Origin: Patescibacteria group bacterium
GTDB lineage: Bacteria > Patescibacteriota > Minisyncoccia > Phycocordibacterales > Zambryskibacteraceae
Length of the DNA: 43,163 nucleotides
Direction of reading: 5' to 3'
Assembly: GCA_038058485.1 (NCBI GenBank)
Contig: JBBUBA010000022.1
Span: 1 to 43,163 of the forward strand
The notes beneath the pieces are model-generated. The model saw nothing but the letters and a program-made list of their open reading frames with translations. It made no database searches and was not told the DNA's origin. A program made the position numbers and the translations under genes. Each line of letters begins with the position of its first letter. The stretch's first letter is position 1. Positions 3,709 to 35,876 of this stretch are shown in pieces.

Positions 3709-4157
3709 TATGGTGTCGATCTTAGAGAATCAATAGTGCCAGTAATAACATTAGTTAGTACTACAGCCCCAAGTAATATGGCTGTCCCGATAACGGTATA
3801 GAGGAGAGCCCTCTTGGCTGTCTCAAGTTTGGTCGGATCTCCTTGAGCTGTGACAAAGAGAAAACCAGACCAAATGAAAGCAATCACCGCTACCACGCCG
3901 GCCAAAGGCAAAAGCACTTTCTCTACCACTGCTTTGATAAATTCAGGAAGACTATTCCCAAAATTGAAAGGATTGGGGATGCTAGTGTTCACTCCCTGGG
4001 TGTTTCCCCCTCCATCATTTCCGGCAGTAGGACCTCCTCCATCCTGCGCAGGAGGTGGATCTTGCGGATCATTGGGTAAATCAGCGCGAACCGCAGAAAC
4101 TCCAGCACCAGAAGACAAAATCATCATTAGAACCAAAGTTAGAAAAATTTTTTTCAT
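3708..4157 (-). CDS. VirB2/TrbC-like pilin paralogue 5 (signal peptide, P/G-rich linker)
   Basis: Signal peptide, P/G/D-rich region, then AFIWSGFLFVTAQGDPTKLETAKRALLYTVIG followed by a second TM. Confidence 0.65.
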   Translation of the reverse strand: MKKIFLTLVLMMILSSGAGVSAVRADLPNDPQDPPPAQDGGGPTAGNDGGGNTQGVNTSIPNPFNFGNSLPEFIKAVVEKVLLPLAGVVAVIAFIWSGFLFVTAQGDPTKLETAKRALLYTVIGTAILLGAVVLTNVITGTIDSLRSTP

Positions 4158-21002: not shown

Positions 21003-21926
21003 ATGTATGATTTGATAATAGTAGGCGGGGGTCCCGCTGGGGTATCGGCTGGTGTCTATGCGGCGAGGAAGCGCTTGAAAACTCTGCTTATAACCGAGAG
21101 TTTTGGTGGGCAATCCGTAGAATCTGTGGGAGTTGAGAACTGGATAGGTACTATAAAAATTTCTGGTCCAGAACTGGCTAAAGTGCTTGAGGAACATCTG
21201 AGAGCTTATGCCGGAGACTCTGTGTCCATCAAGACTGGTGCAAGAGTAGAAAAAATAAAAAAAACAAATGAGGGGTTCGAAGTCAATGTAGGAAGCGAAA
21301 ATTTTAAAACAAAAACCGTTTTAATTGCCTCCGGCTCTTCGAGAAGAAAGTTAGATATACCGGGAGCGAAGAAATTTGAGAACAAGGGTATTACCTATTG
21401 TGCCTCCTGTGATGGACCACTATTTAGTGATCAGGATACTGTTGTGATCGGTGGAGGAAACGCTGGCCTTGAGACAGCCGCACAACTTATGGCCTATACG
21501 AAATCGGTAACAATTCTCATTCGAGGAGATAGCACGAAAGCAGATCAAGCCACAGTTGAGAGGATTCTAGCAAATCCAAAGGTTAGAGAAATCACTAATG
21601 CCACACCTGTGGAGATTAGGGGGGATAAGTTTGTAAAATCTATACTTTACAAGAATTCAAAAACTGGTGAGGAGGAGGAAATTATGGCAACTGGTATCTT
21701 TGTCGAGATAGGACTAATCCCTGCTACAAACTTCGTTGAAGAATTGGTTTCTATGAATAATTTCAAACAAATAAAAATTGACCCTCGTACTCAACGCACT
21801 GAAACAAAAGGCATTTGGGCTGCTGGAGATGCCACAGACTCTCTTTATCATCAAAACAATATTGCTTCCGGAGACGCGGTGAGAGCACTCGAGGATATCT
21901 ACTTATATATTCAAACTGGCAAATGA
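21003..21926 (+). CDS. trxB: thioredoxin-disulfide reductase
   Basis: GGGPAG FAD motif, redox CASC(DG), second GGGNAG NADPH motif. Confidence 0.9.
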   Translation: MYDLIIVGGGPAGVSAGVYAARKRLKTLLITESFGGQSVESVGVENWIGTIKISGPELAKVLEEHLRAYAGDSVSIKTGARVEKIKKTNEGFEVNVGSENFKTKTVLIASGSSRRKLDIPGAKKFENKGITYCASCDGPLFSDQDTVVIGGGNAGLETAAQLMAYTKSVTILIRGDSTKADQATVERILANPKVREITNATPVEIRGDKFVKSILYKNSKTGEEEEIMATGIFVEIGLIPATNFVEELVSMNNFKQIKIDPRTQRTETKGIWAAGDATDSLYHQNNIASGDAVRALEDIYLYIQTGK

Positions 21927-21952
21927 AAAGGCGAGCGTTTGTGGCGCTCGCC
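21926..21952 (-). terminator. terminator for the minus-strand cassette E gene
   Basis: GGCGAGCG / CGCTCGCC stem. A TTTT follows it on the minus strand. Abuts the trxB stop codon. Confidence 0.55.
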
Positions 21953-21978
21953 ATGTTTGAAGGTGCAGGTTGCTCTTG

Positions 21979-22551
21979 CTAGAAGTTGTGGTTGAGCCCG
22001 TAGCTCACGACGAGCTTTCTTCCATTGCAACAGTTGTTGGCAACCACAAACCCAAGAGTGACCAGGCTAGCGATTGCCCCAACTACCGGCGCCGCACGTG
22101 CGATTGAGCTCCTCGTGCGTACCTCCGTCTGAGAGCCCGGATTGTTCCGAGTAAACCGCCTGTTCTGGTCTTCGATCCTCGCCGCAGCGACTGCATTGGC
22201 GATGGAGTCACTCCGAGCCATCGAGGCAATGACGATGCGGGCCGTTTGCTGGGCCAGCAGGTCAATGTTGATGGTCCTGGGCAGGTAGATCGTGTCCCGC
22301 CCAAGTGAGAGGGGTCTCACTCCCATACTGCGATTGGTATCCGGACGAAGCGCCGACGTCCTCGGTCTCGTAACCGAGACACGACGAACGGGGCAGGGAC
22401 GGACCTGCAACGTACCACGTACCACCGCCGCATTCCCGGTAGTATCCCGGAAAAAGGAGTAGTAGCACTTGGTCGTTGAGTCAACCTGCGCCACCGACTT
22501 GCTTGGGGAAGCAAACCAGAGACCGATGAGAAACATCATGTTACGGTACAT
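21979..22551 (-). CDS. secreted protein with a C-terminal hydrophobic anchor, R/T/S-rich, GC-rich block
   Basis: Signal-peptide-like N-terminus ..SKSVAQ. C-terminal APVVGAIASLVTLGFVV. GGAGGGG SD. No family recognised. Confidence 0.55.
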   Translation of the reverse strand: MYRNMMFLIGLWFASPSKSVAQVDSTTKCYYSFFRDTTGNAAVVRGTLQVRPCPVRRVSVTRPRTSALRPDTNRSMGVRPLSLGRDTIYLPRTINIDLLAQQTARIVIASMARSDSIANAVAAARIEDQNRRFTRNNPGSQTEVRTRSSIARAAPVVGAIASLVTLGFVVANNCCNGRKLVVSYGLNHNF

Positions 22552-22596
22552 GTCCCCTCCGGAGTTTAGTCCAGTGTGTGGGTTGGTTCTATCGCT

Positions 22597-22625
22597 ACCC
22601 TATAACAAAACCAGCCACTTGTAAA
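22597..22625 (-). promoter_or_regulatory. promoter TTTACA-17-TAGGGT (cassette E)
   Basis: Read on the minus strand, about 45 nt upstream of the ATG at 22551. Confidence 0.45.
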
Positions 22626-25123: not shown

Positions 25124-25153
25124 TTGACACGAAATGCAGATCTGGGTTACCAT
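25124..25153 (+). promoter_or_regulatory. putative promoter TTGACA-18-TACCAT (cassette F leader)
   Basis: Perfect -35 box and weaker -10 box. The spacer resembles that of the cassette B promoter (..AGAT(AT)CTGGGT..). Confidence 0.4.
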
Positions 25154-25282
25154 ACCTAAGTAAACATATGAAATCTCTCTCAAGAAAGACATCTGTTTGG
25201 TTCGCTTATTTTGCCCATTTTGAAACCCGAAATCGGGGGATTTTCTCTATCTTGTAAACACTAAAATTTTGAAGGATACGAA

Positions 25283-25308
25283 ACGACCCCCATTTGGGGG
25301 TCGTTTTT
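25283..25308 (+). terminator. intrinsic terminator/attenuator within the leader of the 25414 gene
   Basis: ACGACCCCC / GGGGGTCGT 9-bp stem followed by TTTT. Confidence 0.7.
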
Positions 25309-25413
25309 GTTTGGGATTTGCTCACAAAATCTTGCTAGCAGATCCCAGGTAAACAACCTGGTCGAGAGACAGCCTCTTGAAGTTCTTTATAAACTACAGA
25401 ACAAGGAGGGGGG

Positions 25414-26169
25414 ATGAAATACGATAGAGTGGCGAAGCGAGCGGTTGTCAAACTCCGAGGAGCGAGCTTAGAGGCTTTTAACTTCATCGAGAACCTTGAA
25501 AGTGCTGAACTCAACGCCATTCCCGAACTTTGCTCGGCCTTGAGCTCACCAGTCATCTCGCTCGTCGGATTTTCCTGCGCTTTCGGTGGTGGAGACGAGA
25601 AGGATATCACCATCATTGAGCGCGGATTCTTCGAGAAGAGAACGAGAGCAAAGACGGAGGAGCTCGTGAGCTCTCTTCGAGGTCTTGGTAAAGAAGTCAA
25701 AATGACTATCTTTATTGAGGATCTCGAACTTCGCCGAGTGTGGGGATGGTCAAGAAGTCAGGAAGAGATCACAGCTGAGTGCGAGTTCCAGATTGAACTC
25801 GCAAGAGAGAGCGGAGAAGTTCCACCAGGTGTAGATGTGAGACTATGGTCTACCGTCGAACCTGATGCCGTCTCCGCTGGCTCTGCTACACATGAAGAGG
25901 TTCTTGTGTGGGCTAGAGAATCTGGCCAATCTCGCATTCTTGATATCATCGCTCGTCATCGCCAAACATATCCGAGAAACAAGGGAGTGAGTTTGGCGAG
26001 TTTGCGAGCAACATCGGTGACGGGCCTCGCGGGCTACAGTCTCGTGGGCGAAGCTCTTGAGATTCTCTACCCAGACAGCATTCTCGTCCAGCCGGCTCAC
26101 CCTTGGAGAGATCACTTGATGGGATACCGGCGCAAACGTGTCCTACCCATCATCCATCCATGGAGATAG
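25414..26169 (+). CDS. hypothetical soluble protein, 251 aa, GC-rich block
   Basis: Strong SD (AAGGAGGGGGG) directly before the ATG, GC3-rich codons. No family recognised by eye. Confidence 0.65.
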   Translation: MKYDRVAKRAVVKLRGASLEAFNFIENLESAELNAIPELCSALSSPVISLVGFSCAFGGGDEKDITIIERGFFEKRTRAKTEELVSSLRGLGKEVKMTIFIEDLELRRVWGWSRSQEEITAECEFQIELARESGEVPPGVDVRLWSTVEPDAVSAGSATHEEVLVWARESGQSRILDIIARHRQTYPRNKGVSLASLRATSVTGLAGYSLVGEALEILYPDSILVQPAHPWRDHLMGYRRKRVLPIIHPWR

Positions 26170-26171
26170 GT

Positions 26172-26228
26172 ATGAGACACCGCACTCTGAATCGTTGTTG
26201 TGGAGGTGTTGCGGCCTACAACTCATGA
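26172..26228 (+). CDS. 18-aa Cys-rich mini-peptide MRHRTLNRCCGGVAAYNS
   Basis: The ATG lies 2 nt after the upstream stop and 5 nt after GGAGA. Shares MRHRxxxRCCGG with the next small ORF, with mainly synonymous codon differences. Confidence 0.45.
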   Translation: MRHRTLNRCCGGVAAYNS

Positions 26229-26267
26229 GATTCCAAATCTACGAACGAATTGGAAGGAGGTGATGAC

Positions 26268-26576
26268 ATGAGACATAGGAGCTTTACTCGCTGTTGCGGA
26301 GGGCTCCCTCTGCACTGTTCTGTGGAACGAGATCCAACCGGCGAGGTCTACCCCTCGCCGGTTTTTTTCTTTTTAAGACCCTTCACGAAGAGGGTCCCTC
26401 CGATAATCATAACCACTGCTCCAATTATTGGTACGAACAAACCTATAAATATTGAGCCATTACTTGGCTTCAGGGTTGAACCGAACAAGACTAATAGGGC
26501 GGTCACTGCAGTGTTCATTGGCCACAAAATAAGGATGAAGTTTCGATATGGTAAACGACTAAGTCCAGCGCCGTAA
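26268..26576 (+). CDS. second MRHRSFTRCCGG... mini-ORF, 3' end uncertain
   Basis: Strong SD GGAAGGAGG. The frame stays open through the terminator at 26336-26368 and then runs antisense to the DedA-like gene. Only the 5' portion is likely meaningful. Confidence 0.3.
   Translation: MRHRSFTRCCGGLPLHCSVERDPTGEVYPSPVFFFLRPFTKRVPPIIITTAPIIGTNKPINIEPLLGFRVEPNKTNRAVTAVFIGHKIRMKFRYGKRLSPAP
26336..26368 (+). terminator. intrinsic terminator of cassette F
   Basis: CCGGCGAGG / CCTCGCCGG 9-bp stem followed by TTTTTTT. Its 3' half also encodes the last codons (TGEG-stop) of the convergent gene. Confidence 0.75.
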
Positions 26577-27016
26577 GCCAGCACTTCAGGGATGGCAAAT
26601 AAAGTAAGGCAGGCTTGAAAAAATCCCTTGACATCTCCCACATGTTCAACGATACGATTCACAAGAGATTCTTCTTTATTTGAAATTAACTTGTTTACAA
26701 ATTTTCTACCAAAAAACCTGCCGATATAAAAAGCAATGGTATAACCAAGAAAATCACCAATAGCCACATAGACTATGCCGGGCCAAAATCCGAAGAATAG
26801 CCCTACTAGCGGGTAGAGCGGAGAACCGGACAGAGGAGCAATAACTATGGTTGAAACCTTGAGGAAAATAAAAACAAGTGGAGCCCAAACACCTGCCCCC
26901 TCAACCCACACACGAAGAGTACTTATATCGAATATTAATGCTATACCAACTATTAGTAGAATGGTGATACCAACTCCCACTAAATTTAACTGCTCTGTTG
27001 GTTTCTTTTCTTCCAT
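26348..27016 (-). CDS. DedA/VTT-domain (TVP38/TMEM64-like) membrane protein
   Basis: Multi-TM protein with ..SGSPLYPLVGLFFGFWPG..GDFLGYTIAFYIGRFFGRKF.., typical of the SNARE-associated/DedA family. Confidence 0.75.
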   Translation of the reverse strand: MEEKKPTEQLNLVGVGITILLIVGIALIFDISTLRVWVEGAGVWAPLVFIFLKVSTIVIAPLSGSPLYPLVGLFFGFWPGIVYVAIGDFLGYTIAFYIGRFFGRKFVNKLISNKEESLVNRIVEHVGDVKGFFQACLTLFAIPEVLAYGAGLSRLPYRNFILILWPMNTAVTALLVLFGSTLKPSNGSIFIGLFVPIIGAVVMIIGGTLFVKGLKKKKTGEG

Positions 27017-35163: not shown

Positions 35164-35876
35164 CTTACTAATCTTTGTCCAACACCGAGTGTTGACCAAT
35201 TTCTTCTATAACTTCCTTTGCAGTACTGCTTGAAACAAATCTTCCATACTGATCTTTACTTTTAAATTGCTCGAGAATAATCTCTGGCTTCAGCAAACTT
35301 CCCCATCTATTTTTATTCATGTAGTCCTCAAAGCTCGACCAAGAATAATCGCTCCACTTTTCAGGGTTTTTGTGAACATAAGCTGATAAATATAGAAGTT
35401 GCTTATCATCCACAATGTGGACAGCTTGATATGGCCCTTGAAAAACGTGCCCTGATTTTTGATATTTTGTATTGTAATATTTTGTATAACTATTCAGAAC
35501 TCTTTGCATGTATCTGGCAATTCCCTTGTCATCAATTTCTTTAACAACTAGATGGAAGTGATTCGGCATCAAACAATAGGCCGTTAGTTCAACGAATCGC
35601 TTTTTGATAATTTTTACTAAATCTTCAGCATCTATGGCAGACACTCGGTGTTGACCAAAAGCTTTCGCCATTCGCCCAACATGCAAAAAGTTTATAGGCG
35701 ACTGAAAAGCAATTATCAGAAATAGAAATCTATAAAAATCGCTTCGATCATGAAAAATATTTTGTTTATTAACTCCTCTGTTATAAAGATGGTATATCTC
35801 GCCTGGAGCAATTCTTATTTGTCTCATTGCTTTATTATAAGGTCAACACTCGGTGTTGACCAGTTGGGGTTATTGT
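35164..35876 (-). mobile_element. IS200/IS605-like (RAYT-type) element between 83-nt direct repeats
   Basis: A single HUH/Y1 transposase gene. Related hairpins (GGTCAACAC-TCG-GTGTTGACC and variants) lie at 35841-35861, 35640-35653 and 35180-35194. Confidence 0.65.
35168..35827 (-). CDS. Y1 (HUH) transposase, IS200-like / REP-associated tyrosine transposase family
   Basis: ..YHLYNRG..AYCLMPNHFHLVVKE..GHVFQGPYQAVHI..LLYLSAYVHKNP. The HUH motif is HFH. Confidence 0.8.
   Translation of the reverse strand: MRQIRIAPGEIYHLYNRGVNKQNIFHDRSDFYRFLFLIIAFQSPINFLHVGRMAKAFGQHRVSAIDAEDLVKIIKKRFVELTAYCLMPNHFHLVVKEIDDKGIARYMQRVLNSYTKYYNTKYQKSGHVFQGPYQAVHIVDDKQLLYLSAYVHKNPEKWSDYSWSSFEDYMNKNRWGSLLKPEIILEQFKSKDQYGRFVSSSTAKEVIEEIGQHSVLDKD

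Follow-up and report, generated by a model that had tools for sequence, protein, structure and literature searches.

We describe a two-gene module in a 43,163-nt contig of a Patescibacteria group bacterium (GCA_038058485.1, JBBUBA010000022.1; the whole stretch is called the window hereafter), where a gene for a 251-residue protein is followed immediately by two very short open reading frames (mini-ORFs) encoding variants of one small, cysteine-containing peptide. The arrangement recurs in related genomes: one to three peptide units lie directly 3' of the gene in 12 of 12 loci, always on the same strand and 2-45 nt past its stop codon. That the mini-genes and the gene for the 251-residue protein, which we call the enzyme, form a two-gene module is firmly established on this comparative evidence. 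As read from the DNA, the locus forms the 3' end of an operon that is compact and self-contained and has so far been seen only in Patescibacteria (Candidate Phyla Radiation, CPR). What the peptide does is a matter of weighing alternatives; tentatively, we favour a dedicated substrate of a starvation-induced enzyme, in the manner of RiPPs (ribosomally synthesised peptides with post-translational modifications) or of a scaffold.

A word-index search with the 251-residue protein returned seven homologues at 44-59% identity and an exhaustive profile search returned 49 cluster representatives (clustered at approximately 50% identity), almost all about 250 residues long; scans of GTDB genomes and of metagenomes gave at least one and at least four loci with the enzyme family, respectively. 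All named sources of homologues are Patescibacteria (Yanofskybacteria, Komeilibacteria, Paceibacterota and Saccharibacteria). DNA context was read at 12 distinct loci, namely the window and those labelled L001, L005, L006, L008, L012, L014, L019, L020, L022, L023 and L025. The window and the first six of these form a close clade, while the enzymes of L019, L020, L022, L023 and L025 share 23-44% identity with the window protein; taken together, the 12 loci span 23-59% enzyme identity and differ in genomic neighbourhood. The enzyme alignment comprises 45 sequences and the peptide alignment, which is ungapped, 16 distinct units.

A GGAGG-type ribosome-binding site stands 5-9 nt before the mini-ORF start in every locus and is often formed by the terminal Trp-Arg codons of the enzyme gene itself (TGG AGG). 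Mini-ORF 1 of the window is translationally coupled, with GGAG inside the final codons of the enzyme gene, and mini-ORF 2 (start at 26268; MRHRSFTRCCGGLPLHCSVERD... / MRHRSFTRCCGGLPLHCS...) begins 39 bases past the stop of mini-ORF 1, preceded by GGAAGGAGG; the mini-ORFs are probably translated in vivo. The 15-residue consensus is M-x-[RH]-[ST]-[LF]-[NTH]-R-x-C-G-G-[LMIV]-P-[LVA]-[HYFW], within which the core x-R-x-C-G-G-[LMIV]-P-x-[HYFW] is common to all loci. Cys-Gly-Gly is invariant, Pro occurs in 15 of the 16 units (the exception, with Ala, is window unit 1), and the final conserved residue is His in seven units, Tyr in four, Phe in four and Trp in one. When the window and 26 loci were scanned in six frames (351,886 residues), CGG.[PA].[HYFW] matched 32 times against 0.35 expected, and all 32 matches sit just downstream of homologues of the 251-residue gene and nowhere else in the scanned sequence. 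A sequence-only reading of the window had picked out the twin mini-ORFs by a shared motif and named the adjacent protein as a candidate partner; both suggestions are borne out, the motif being real and occurring beside enzyme homologues at all 12 loci, where the protein is the conserved genetic partner.

The same reading had counted eight differing codons among the first 12 of the two window units, five of them synonymous (CAC/CAT, CGC/AGG, CGT/CGC, TGT/TGC and GGT/GGG), a count we reproduce from the sequence, and had argued that selection acts on the peptide rather than on an RNA repeat. Across the family, the invariant DNA columns are codon positions one and two of Cys, Gly, Gly and Pro together with the middle base of the hydrophobic codon, while every third codon position varies and both Cys, all four Gly and all four Pro codons are in use (mean core entropy at codon positions 1, 2 and 3 is 0.66, 0.32 and 1.45). 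Because third positions vary while first and second positions are invariant, peptide-level selection is confirmed. The contrary explanation, that the units are an RNA repeat, a structured RNA or a chance duplication without coding function, could appeal to window unit 2, where pairing of the codons for Cys-Gly-Gly with those for Pro-Leu-His would give an 8-bp hairpin (26295-26314). However, pairing across the 16 units is no better than in column shuffles (78.1% against 78.7%), the one double change is at chance level, and this hairpin shows no covariation. Rfam, in gathering and E-value modes, gave no match at the mini-ORFs (elsewhere only tRNAs and a sub-threshold Phe_leader), and folding of 26150-26385 leaves the terminator as the sole robust element; with third codon positions varying freely besides, the codon pattern refutes this explanation, which we place last in likelihood of all those considered. 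Conserved RNA pairing, which the sequence-only reading had listed as a possible refutation of its claim, is thus not the cause of the duplicated segment.

Another early claim, that the two window units diverge completely after Cys-Cys-Gly-Gly, does not stand, since both keep hydrophobic-x-x-aromatic beyond it (VAAY and LPLH). It had led to a comparison with double-glycine leader peptides, in which a C39/ABC system would cleave after Gly-Gly and release a variable bacteriocin or RiPP core; the Gly-Gly itself and the differences between the two window copies beyond it are what recommend this idea. The family reverses the picture: Gly-Gly is central to the conserved block, the h-P-x-aromatic residues that follow are conserved (15 of 16 units) and only the tail after the aromatic residue varies, so that the released core would consist of four conserved residues and a random tail crossing the terminator. 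The supposed leader would be 8-11 residues long, with 8-9 basic or polar residues (x-R-S-L-N-R-x) ahead of C-G-G and without an LSxxELxxIxGG-type consensus, whereas double-glycine leaders span about 15-30 residues in a conserved hydrophobic/acidic pattern. The genes called at the loci include no recurrent C39 peptidase or dedicated exporter (in L008 an ABC transporter, for which no C39 domain is recorded, is encoded about 1 kb downstream, and in L005 an ABC ATPase is encoded upstream). The family alignment contradicts a double-glycine precursor, which we regard as highly improbable. A lipoprotein reading of the peptide Cys was set aside by eye, there being no hydrophobic signal region and no L-x-x-C box.

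The enzyme belongs, on sequence criteria, to a separate and previously undescribed family that no library model fits. Pfam (searched with 45 members), NCBIfam, PADLOC and PHROGs gave no relevant family match, and sequence and profile searches of the PDB were empty even at E 10. An AlphaFold2 (AF2) model from the 45-sequence alignment has a predicted local distance difference test score (pLDDT) of 95.6 and a predicted TM-score (pTM) of 0.91 (an earlier model from eight sequences had pLDDT 80.4). Foldseek searches of the PDB with both models returned only PvcA/IsnA proteins, cyclodipeptide synthases (CDPSs) and catalytic domains of tyrosyl-tRNA synthetase (TyrRS), at E 7e-6 to 1e-3 and TM-scores of 0.40-0.54 overall. 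The best E-values fell to PvcA/IsnA (3e59 and 9dh4; 7e-6 to 4e-5, with TM-scores of 0.44-0.49 at a root-mean-square deviation of 8-10 Å), and the CDPS-type matches (5mlp, 5ocd, 2x9q, 9j61 and 3oqv) had E 1e-4 to 1e-3 and TM-scores of 0.40-0.51. Because only these three kinds of protein are returned, the predicted fold is assigned to the Rossmann type shared by TyrRS, CDPSs and isonitrile synthases, that is, the fold of class-Ic aminoacyl-tRNA synthetases (aaRSs).

Conservation within the family is concentrated where such a fold would lead one to expect it. Cys55, Trp110 and His248 are invariant; conservation is at least 90% for Glu29, Phe53, Phe73, Asp103, Glu105, Trp112, Gln116, Trp145, Ser146, Gly212, Leu215, Asp233 and Leu244, and 75% for Ser54, beside the 100% of Cys55. 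The AF2 model has five parallel strands, and every conserved polar residue comes after the C-terminal end of one of them; this being the canonical position of an active site, these residues probably form an active-site cluster. The HIGH and KMSKS motifs of class I aaRSs are absent from the family alignment; F-S-C55-(A/L) stands at the position of HIGH and I-I-H248-P-(W/F) at that of KMSKS. The enzyme differs from class I aaRSs further in being a single 251-residue domain without an anticodon-binding domain. The family is mildly acidic (median pI 6.3).

Two variants of the gene arrangement concern the enzyme directly. In L020 (1516-2385) and L022 (1-350) a 289-residue gene immediately 5' of the enzyme is a distant paralogue (hhalign probability 92.8%, E 4e-7), which retains F-T-C, lacks the C-terminal His, and so makes a tandem family pair followed by a single peptide gene. 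In two assemblies of one site (L012, 1001-1540; L013, 3001-3540) a frameshifting deletion of about 70 codons removes Cys55, Asp103, Glu105 and Trp110 from the enzyme, while the mini-ORF (MHRSLNRPCGGIPLFCE, then a stop) and the downstream hydrolase gene are intact; this may be recent decay, or the peptide may matter without the enzyme.

Among the three structural relatives, CDPSs make diketopiperazines from two aminoacyl-tRNAs and their genes are not paired with mini-ORFs. Members such as AlbC, Rv2275 and YvmC are likewise single domains of about 230-250 residues with a class-Ic aaRS-like fold and no ATP motifs, and a candidate nucleophile stands at the end of the first strand in both cases (F-S-C55 here, G-I-S37 in AlbC). 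Nonetheless, no sequence or profile similarity is detectable (hhalign against AlbC, whose sequence was checked against 3OQV, gave a probability of 0.4%), and the invariant residue here is Cys and not Ser. A CDPS is known from Parcubacteria (PMC7613923). The DIT1_PvcA family of Pfam gives no match to the enzyme, and the locus neighbours include no IsnB/PvcB-type Fe/2-oxoglutarate oxygenase. IsnA, PvcA and Dit1 bind Tyr or Trp and act on the amine of the free amino acid, a point of difference in that the N-terminus, where the peptide has its only free amine, is not conserved.

Upstream of the enzyme, the window has what looks like the anatomy of a trp/phe-type leader-peptide attenuator (25124-25308; Table 1). 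In L001, L005, L006, L008, L012 and L014 the leader ATG is preceded, at 7-17 nt, by promoter equivalents of the form TTGAC(N17)TATNAT, and all seven close-clade loci have a leader ORF of 26-29 codons with Trp at codon 11 and Tyr/Phe-rich flanks; synonymous first-position changes between loci (CGA/AGA, TTG/CTG) speak for its translation. Segment 3 includes the 5' arm of the leader terminator, and that arm is complementary to the end of the leader ORF (3' part ..AAT CGG GNG TTG TTT AGA..). Against shuffled sequences, the duplex of segments 2 and 3 scores z -3.0 in the window, where its energy is -16.6 kcal/mol, and z -4.4 to -6.2 in five other loci, where the energy is -24.6 to -28.9 kcal/mol; the antiterminator forms in folds cut before the 3' arm of the terminator. 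Pairing of segments 1 and 2 (the Tyr-Trp codons with the start of the antiterminator strand) has z of about -2.8 in three of six loci and is weak in the other three. An equivalent terminator hairpin (AACAGCCCCCGAT..GGGGGCTGTT) occurs in other loci, 20-100 nt before the enzyme start, and the spacing in L008 leaves no space for a second promoter between the two. In all sequence examined this element was seen only 5' of genes of the 251-residue family; Rfam gives it a sub-threshold Phe_leader match (27.7 bits against 55). With trpL, pheL and hisL it shares regulatory codons in segment 1 and alternative antiterminator and terminator structures, and it differs from them in mixing Trp, Tyr, Phe and His codons and in lacking a Shine-Dalgarno sequence.

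A further 5' untranslated region (UTR) segment, missing from the shorter leaders of L001, L005, L008 and L014, carries hairpins that covary between the window (25309-25413) and L006 (about 3740-3843), namely CCCAGGTAAACAACCTGG against CCCAGACAGGAAGTCTGG and TCGAGAGACAGCCTCTTGA against TCGGAGGAAAGTCCTTCGA; the segment may be a second RNA element with a regulatory role.

Table 1. Operon features in the window, by position, and the conserved peptide units read at the other loci.
Feature	Positions	Strand	Remarks
Sigma-70-like promoter	25124-25153	+	TTGACA, 18 nt, TACCAT; scored 10 of 12
Leader mini-ORF	25168-25257	+	MKSLSRKTSVWFAYFAHFETRNRGIFSIL, then stop; 29 codons; no Shine-Dalgarno; Trp codon 11 at 25198-25200; Phe/Tyr/His run
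Antiterminator	25234-25292	+	Segment 2 (25234-25254, 3' end of leader ORF) with segment 3 (25272-25292); from folding
Leader intrinsic terminator	25282-25308	+	AACGACCCCC-ATTT-GGGGGTCGTT and T-run; matches other loci
Structured 5' UTR	25309-25413	+	Ends in Shine-Dalgarno AAGGAGGGGGG; common to window and L006
Enzyme gene, 251 residues	25414-26169	+	Ends in TAG; predicted class-Ic aaRS / CDPS / IsnA-like Rossmann fold
Mini-ORF 1	26172-26228	+	MRHRTLNRCCGGVAAYNS, then stop; starts 2 bases after enzyme stop; variant unit, Ala replacing Pro
Shine-Dalgarno of mini-ORF 2	26256-26260	+	GGAGG, 7 nt 5' of its ATG
Conserved unit of mini-ORF 2	26268-26315	+	MRHRSFTRCCGGLPLH; no conservation past His16
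Operon terminator	26336-26368	+	11-bp stem AACCGGCGAGG / CCTCGCCGGTT and T-run; hairpin 26336-26363; from folding
L001 units			VHRSLNRPCGGMPVY fused to MYRSLNRPCGGVPLF...
L005 unit			VERNLTRQCGGLPLY...
L006 unit			VKFKSFTRSCGGLPLF, then stop
L008 units			VINYLERQCGGLPVWRVR, then stop, and MKHDPNRQCGGLPLHTIGGRTSLNHQCGGLPLYI, then stop
L012 unit			MHRSLNRPCGGIPLFCE, then stop
L014 unit			MHRSLNRPCGGIPLFYE, then stop
L019 unit			MFRTLRRKCGGLPAHRP, then stop
L020 unit			VIRSIHRACGGMPLH...
L022 unit			MYPHPLHRACGGLPYH...
L023 unit			MRLWRTHRSCGGMPAH...
L025 unit			MKLWRRHYSCGGMPAH...

From the Trp, Tyr, Phe and sometimes His codons of the leader, or from a YerC/HisR-type regulator that takes the leader's place in distant relatives, it follows that the operon should be induced by starvation; we infer that a shortage of charged aromatic tRNAs lets transcription run past the leader terminator. 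The regulator in question is a YerC/YecD-family, TrpR-related gene (TIGR02531, E 1e-18 to 1e-20) upstream of the enzyme in L019, L020, L023 and L025. YerC of Bacillus subtilis is the histidine repressor HisR (PMC9413887). All peptide units end in His in these four loci, and also in L022; in the attenuator clade, leader His codons are found only in the window and L008, both of which have a His-ending unit. Loci with several units end them in differing residues (Y and H in the window, Y and F in L001, and W, H and Y in L008). It is suggestive, in a sample that is small and phylogenetically structured, that the last conserved codon of the mini-ORF is linked to the amino acid apparently controlling the operon. 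A terminator hairpin (AGTCCCTTCTCGAAAGAGAAGGGACT with a T-run) also lies between the YerC-like gene and the enzyme in L023 (about 900-945) and L025 (about 2440-2480); enzyme transcription there seems to need read-through, as the terminator is only about 25 nt before the start.

The 3' ends of the mini-ORFs are as unusual as their beginnings. Nothing is conserved after the aromatic or His residue, and the tail ranges from zero to about 85 residues, with 0-3 residues in five loci and none in L006 (CGGLPLF, then a stop). In seven of 12 loci (the window, L001, L005, L020, L022, L023 and L025) no stop codon closes the last ORF ahead of the hairpin. This hairpin is GC-rich, often GGCGAG..CTCGCC, and begins 7-20 nt past the aromatic codon in 11 of 12 loci. 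Mini-ORF 2 of the window stays open until a stop at 26574-26576 and so runs across the terminator hairpin and T-run; this terminator is bidirectional and also serves a convergent VTT/DedA gene (26348-27016, minus strand). The earlier reading was right that the second ORF lacks a stop before the terminator, and its suggestion that the ORF is decaying is not upheld, since seven of the 12 loci share the trait and an open end is thus a property of the family. We propose that the tail after the aromatic residue is dispensable. There is some likeness here to AgrD, a short precursor with an essential Cys at a fixed distance before a dispensable C-terminal tail, which is processed by AgrB with an essential Cys/His pair; the peptide Cys and dispensable tail, and the Cys and His of the enzyme, would correspond. 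However, AgrB is an integral membrane protease of unrelated fold, and cyclisation driven by tail cleavage cannot be general because the L006 peptide has no tail.

These features bring into play a different kind of explanation, in which the mini-ORF is a cis-acting, 3' hungry-codon or arrest sensor and the free peptide has no function. Scarcity of His-, Tyr-, Phe- or Trp-tRNA would pause a ribosome with the aromatic/His codon in the A site, the nascent R-x-C-G-G-h-P-h would strengthen the pause, and the fate of the mRNA would be altered through protection of its 3' end or through use of the terminator. Much of what has been described would suit such a sensor: conservation that is strongest in the preceding five or six residues and stops at the aromatic/His codon, random tails and stopless ORFs, a strong hairpin shortly beyond the codon in nearly all loci, a set of terminal residues that matches the codons enriched in the 5' leader, leader His codons only where a unit ends in His, His-ending units at every locus with a YerC/HisR-type regulator, and different terminal residues within one locus. 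TnaC and SecM likewise combine conservation at the amino-acid level, ending at one codon, with a nearby hairpin. Yet known arrest and attenuator peptides lie upstream of their targets, whereas these mini-ORFs occur in several copies 3' of the sole conserved gene and, unlike TnaC and SecM, with no conserved alternative RNA pairing. Nothing downstream is conserved either: a convergent gene comes next in the window, L019, L020 and L022, and where a hydrolase gene follows (L005, L012 and L014) it has conserved promoter-like boxes of its own (TGACT, 17 nt, TATNNT; a by-eye reading). The upstream units (window unit 1 and the first two of L008, a and b) are too distant from the hairpin, the hairpin distance of 7-35 nt is too loose for a single steric mechanism, and a role purely in cis leaves the strict linkage to one enzyme family unexplained. 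We consider a 3' sensor unlikely, and it is nevertheless the strongest competitor of the substrate reading.

The hydrolases deserve separate mention. A serine hydrolase gene recurs as the next one 3' of the cassette; it belongs to the PF06821 alpha/beta type in L001 (4994-5593), L005 (4468-5067), L008 (4999-5595), L014 (1307-1906) and L012 and is PepE/S51-like in L006 and L007 (L007 4918-5547), and its product could process the peptide, or release amino acids. We set aside the idea that the mini-ORFs control this gene by read-through, given its promoter-like boxes and its absence from five of the 12 loci.

Obligatory linkage to an enzyme of this fold is what a third explanation accommodates, by taking the substrate to be a peptidyl-tRNA. 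Starvation would stall the ribosome at the last conserved codon, the 14-residue peptidyl-tRNA would be released or extracted, and the CDPS-like enzyme would move the peptidyl group to Cys55 and off-load it, for example cyclised through the peptide Cys. This proposal takes in all the sensor-type evidence, explains the obligatory enzyme as well as the irrelevance of tail and stop codon, and so accounts for more of the observations than the other models do; CDPS and TyrRS folds bind the acyl-CCA end of tRNAs, and the acyl-enzyme nucleophile of CDPSs is at the same strand end. But it is wholly inferential and the enzyme would be without precedent, drop-off of a 14-mer peptidyl-tRNA is not known as efficient, the mildly acidic family has no obvious global charge for binding tRNA, and there is no sequence similarity to CDPSs. 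We give it a low probability, behind that of the sensor.

The substrate reading remains, in our view, the best account, and we favour it because linkage is obligate across contexts, translation is coupled, units occur multiplied and fused, an invariant Cys stands beside a flexible Gly-Gly, and the predicted fold suits such a role. Tandem units are fused within one ORF in L001 and L008, and in this they resemble multi-core precursors; more generally, a short precursor gene stands beside a co-conserved candidate enzyme, as in RiPP clusters, in all 12 loci. As to the fold, its relatives accommodate an aromatic aminoacyl group, and in CDPSs catalysis passes through an acyl-enzyme formed at the same position (PMC12945691). 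We infer, then, that the peptide is a substrate, and the chemistry might proceed as follows. The enzyme would bind the R-x-C-G-G-h-P-x-aromatic motif, with the aromatic or His side chain occupying a pocket for amino acids that descends from the TyrRS/CDPS lineage, and the invariant peptide Cys would be carried to the Cys55/His248 site on the flexible Gly-Gly. The outcome could be a covalent Cys modification of the acyl-transfer type, or cleavage or cyclisation at the aromatic residue, and an aminoacyl-tRNA is a possible co-substrate, as in CDPSs. There are parallels in which a very short peptide is likewise encoded beside a dedicated enzyme, among them the peptide aminoacyl-tRNA ligases (PEARLs) and their pearlins (TglA/TglB), microcin C (the MccA heptapeptide and MccB) and the five-residue biarylitides. 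PEARLs use aminoacyl-tRNA (PMC12945691). The enzymes of these systems differ in fold (LanB-like, ThiF/E1-like and P450, respectively), and their chemistry takes place at a defined C-terminus, whereas here the conserved block is internal and the tail arbitrary.

Several observations weigh against a substrate. As RiPP precursors go, the peptide is unusually short, and near the loci there is no conserved RiPP recognition element (RRE) domain, protease or exporter. A starvation-induced peptide that itself requires the scarce residue at a conserved position would be paradoxical for a product and typical of a sensor; random, often stopless tails and a codon for the apparent regulating amino acid fit a sensor better in the same way, as does conservation that, like that of arrest peptides, is strongest just before the aromatic codon and ends exactly there. 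If transcripts end at the terminator, the seven stopless last ORFs would lie on non-stop mRNA and their peptides would be tagged by transfer-messenger RNA (tmRNA). At the L012/L013 site peptide and leader are intact though the enzyme gene has its frameshifting deletion, and the sampling is limited, with 12 loci read out of some 49 family clusters. Were the peptide bound and left unmodified, it would instead be a micro-protein partner, a subunit, inhibitor or antitoxin-like regulator of 15-18 residues. Strict gene order and coupled translation suit stoichiometric partners, and the invariant Cys could complete a metal or active site with Cys55 and His248; a copy number of one to three, tandem fusion, variable tails and non-stop ORFs would be odd for a structural subunit, and we rank this possibility just after the peptidyl-tRNA proposal. 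Literature searches on CDPS-like or aaRS-like enzymes acting on ribosomal peptides, and on RiPPs in the CPR, turned up no description of the system.

The cassette has a compositional signature of its own. Its G+C content is 49-55%, against 32-46% in the flanks, in nine of 11 loci, despite protein identities of only 23-59%; the cassettes so elevated are that of the window (25414-26320) and its equivalents in L001, L005, L006, L008, L014, L019, L023 and L025. Raised G+C that travels with the cassette could reflect horizontal spread or a persistent constraint. Around the locus, the window encodes CPR-type housekeeping functions (FtsA, FtsZ, TsaD, tRNAs, a pyruvoyl arginine decarboxylase and a class-I aaRS). 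Elsewhere in the window, 21800-22600 has 58-60% G+C against about 42% for the genome; an ORF of 190 residues within it (21979-22551, minus strand) has a signal-peptide-like start and no Pfam or Rfam match; and an ORF of 219 residues (35168-35827, minus strand) has an IS200-like Y1 transposase domain (PF01797, E 1e-8).

To our knowledge, the genomes of Patescibacteria are tiny, hardly any secondary metabolism has been recognised in them, and very few of their regulatory systems have been characterised. The enzyme family described here forms a fourth branch of the fold shared by TyrRS, CDPSs and isonitrile synthases, about 49 clusters strong at 50% identity, and it is paired in all examined loci with 15-codon units containing Cys-Gly-Gly-x-Pro that are among the smallest conserved genes known. 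The pair appears to be tied to amino-acid sensing through an attenuator-like leader and, in distant relatives, through a HisR-type regulator. One enzyme and one 15-mer make a system small enough for direct testing in vitro, and the outcome may be a new chemistry akin to that of RiPPs, a peptide synthesised solely in the absence of one amino acid, or a new type of 3' translational sensor. If the peptidyl-tRNA proposal were true, the product would be a starvation-specific signal or effector, coupled to the ribosome and triggered by the absence of one amino acid, and the aaRS/CDPS fold would have gained a new activity. Any of these outcomes would inform the question of how obligate symbionts unable to make amino acids detect a shortage of them and respond to it.

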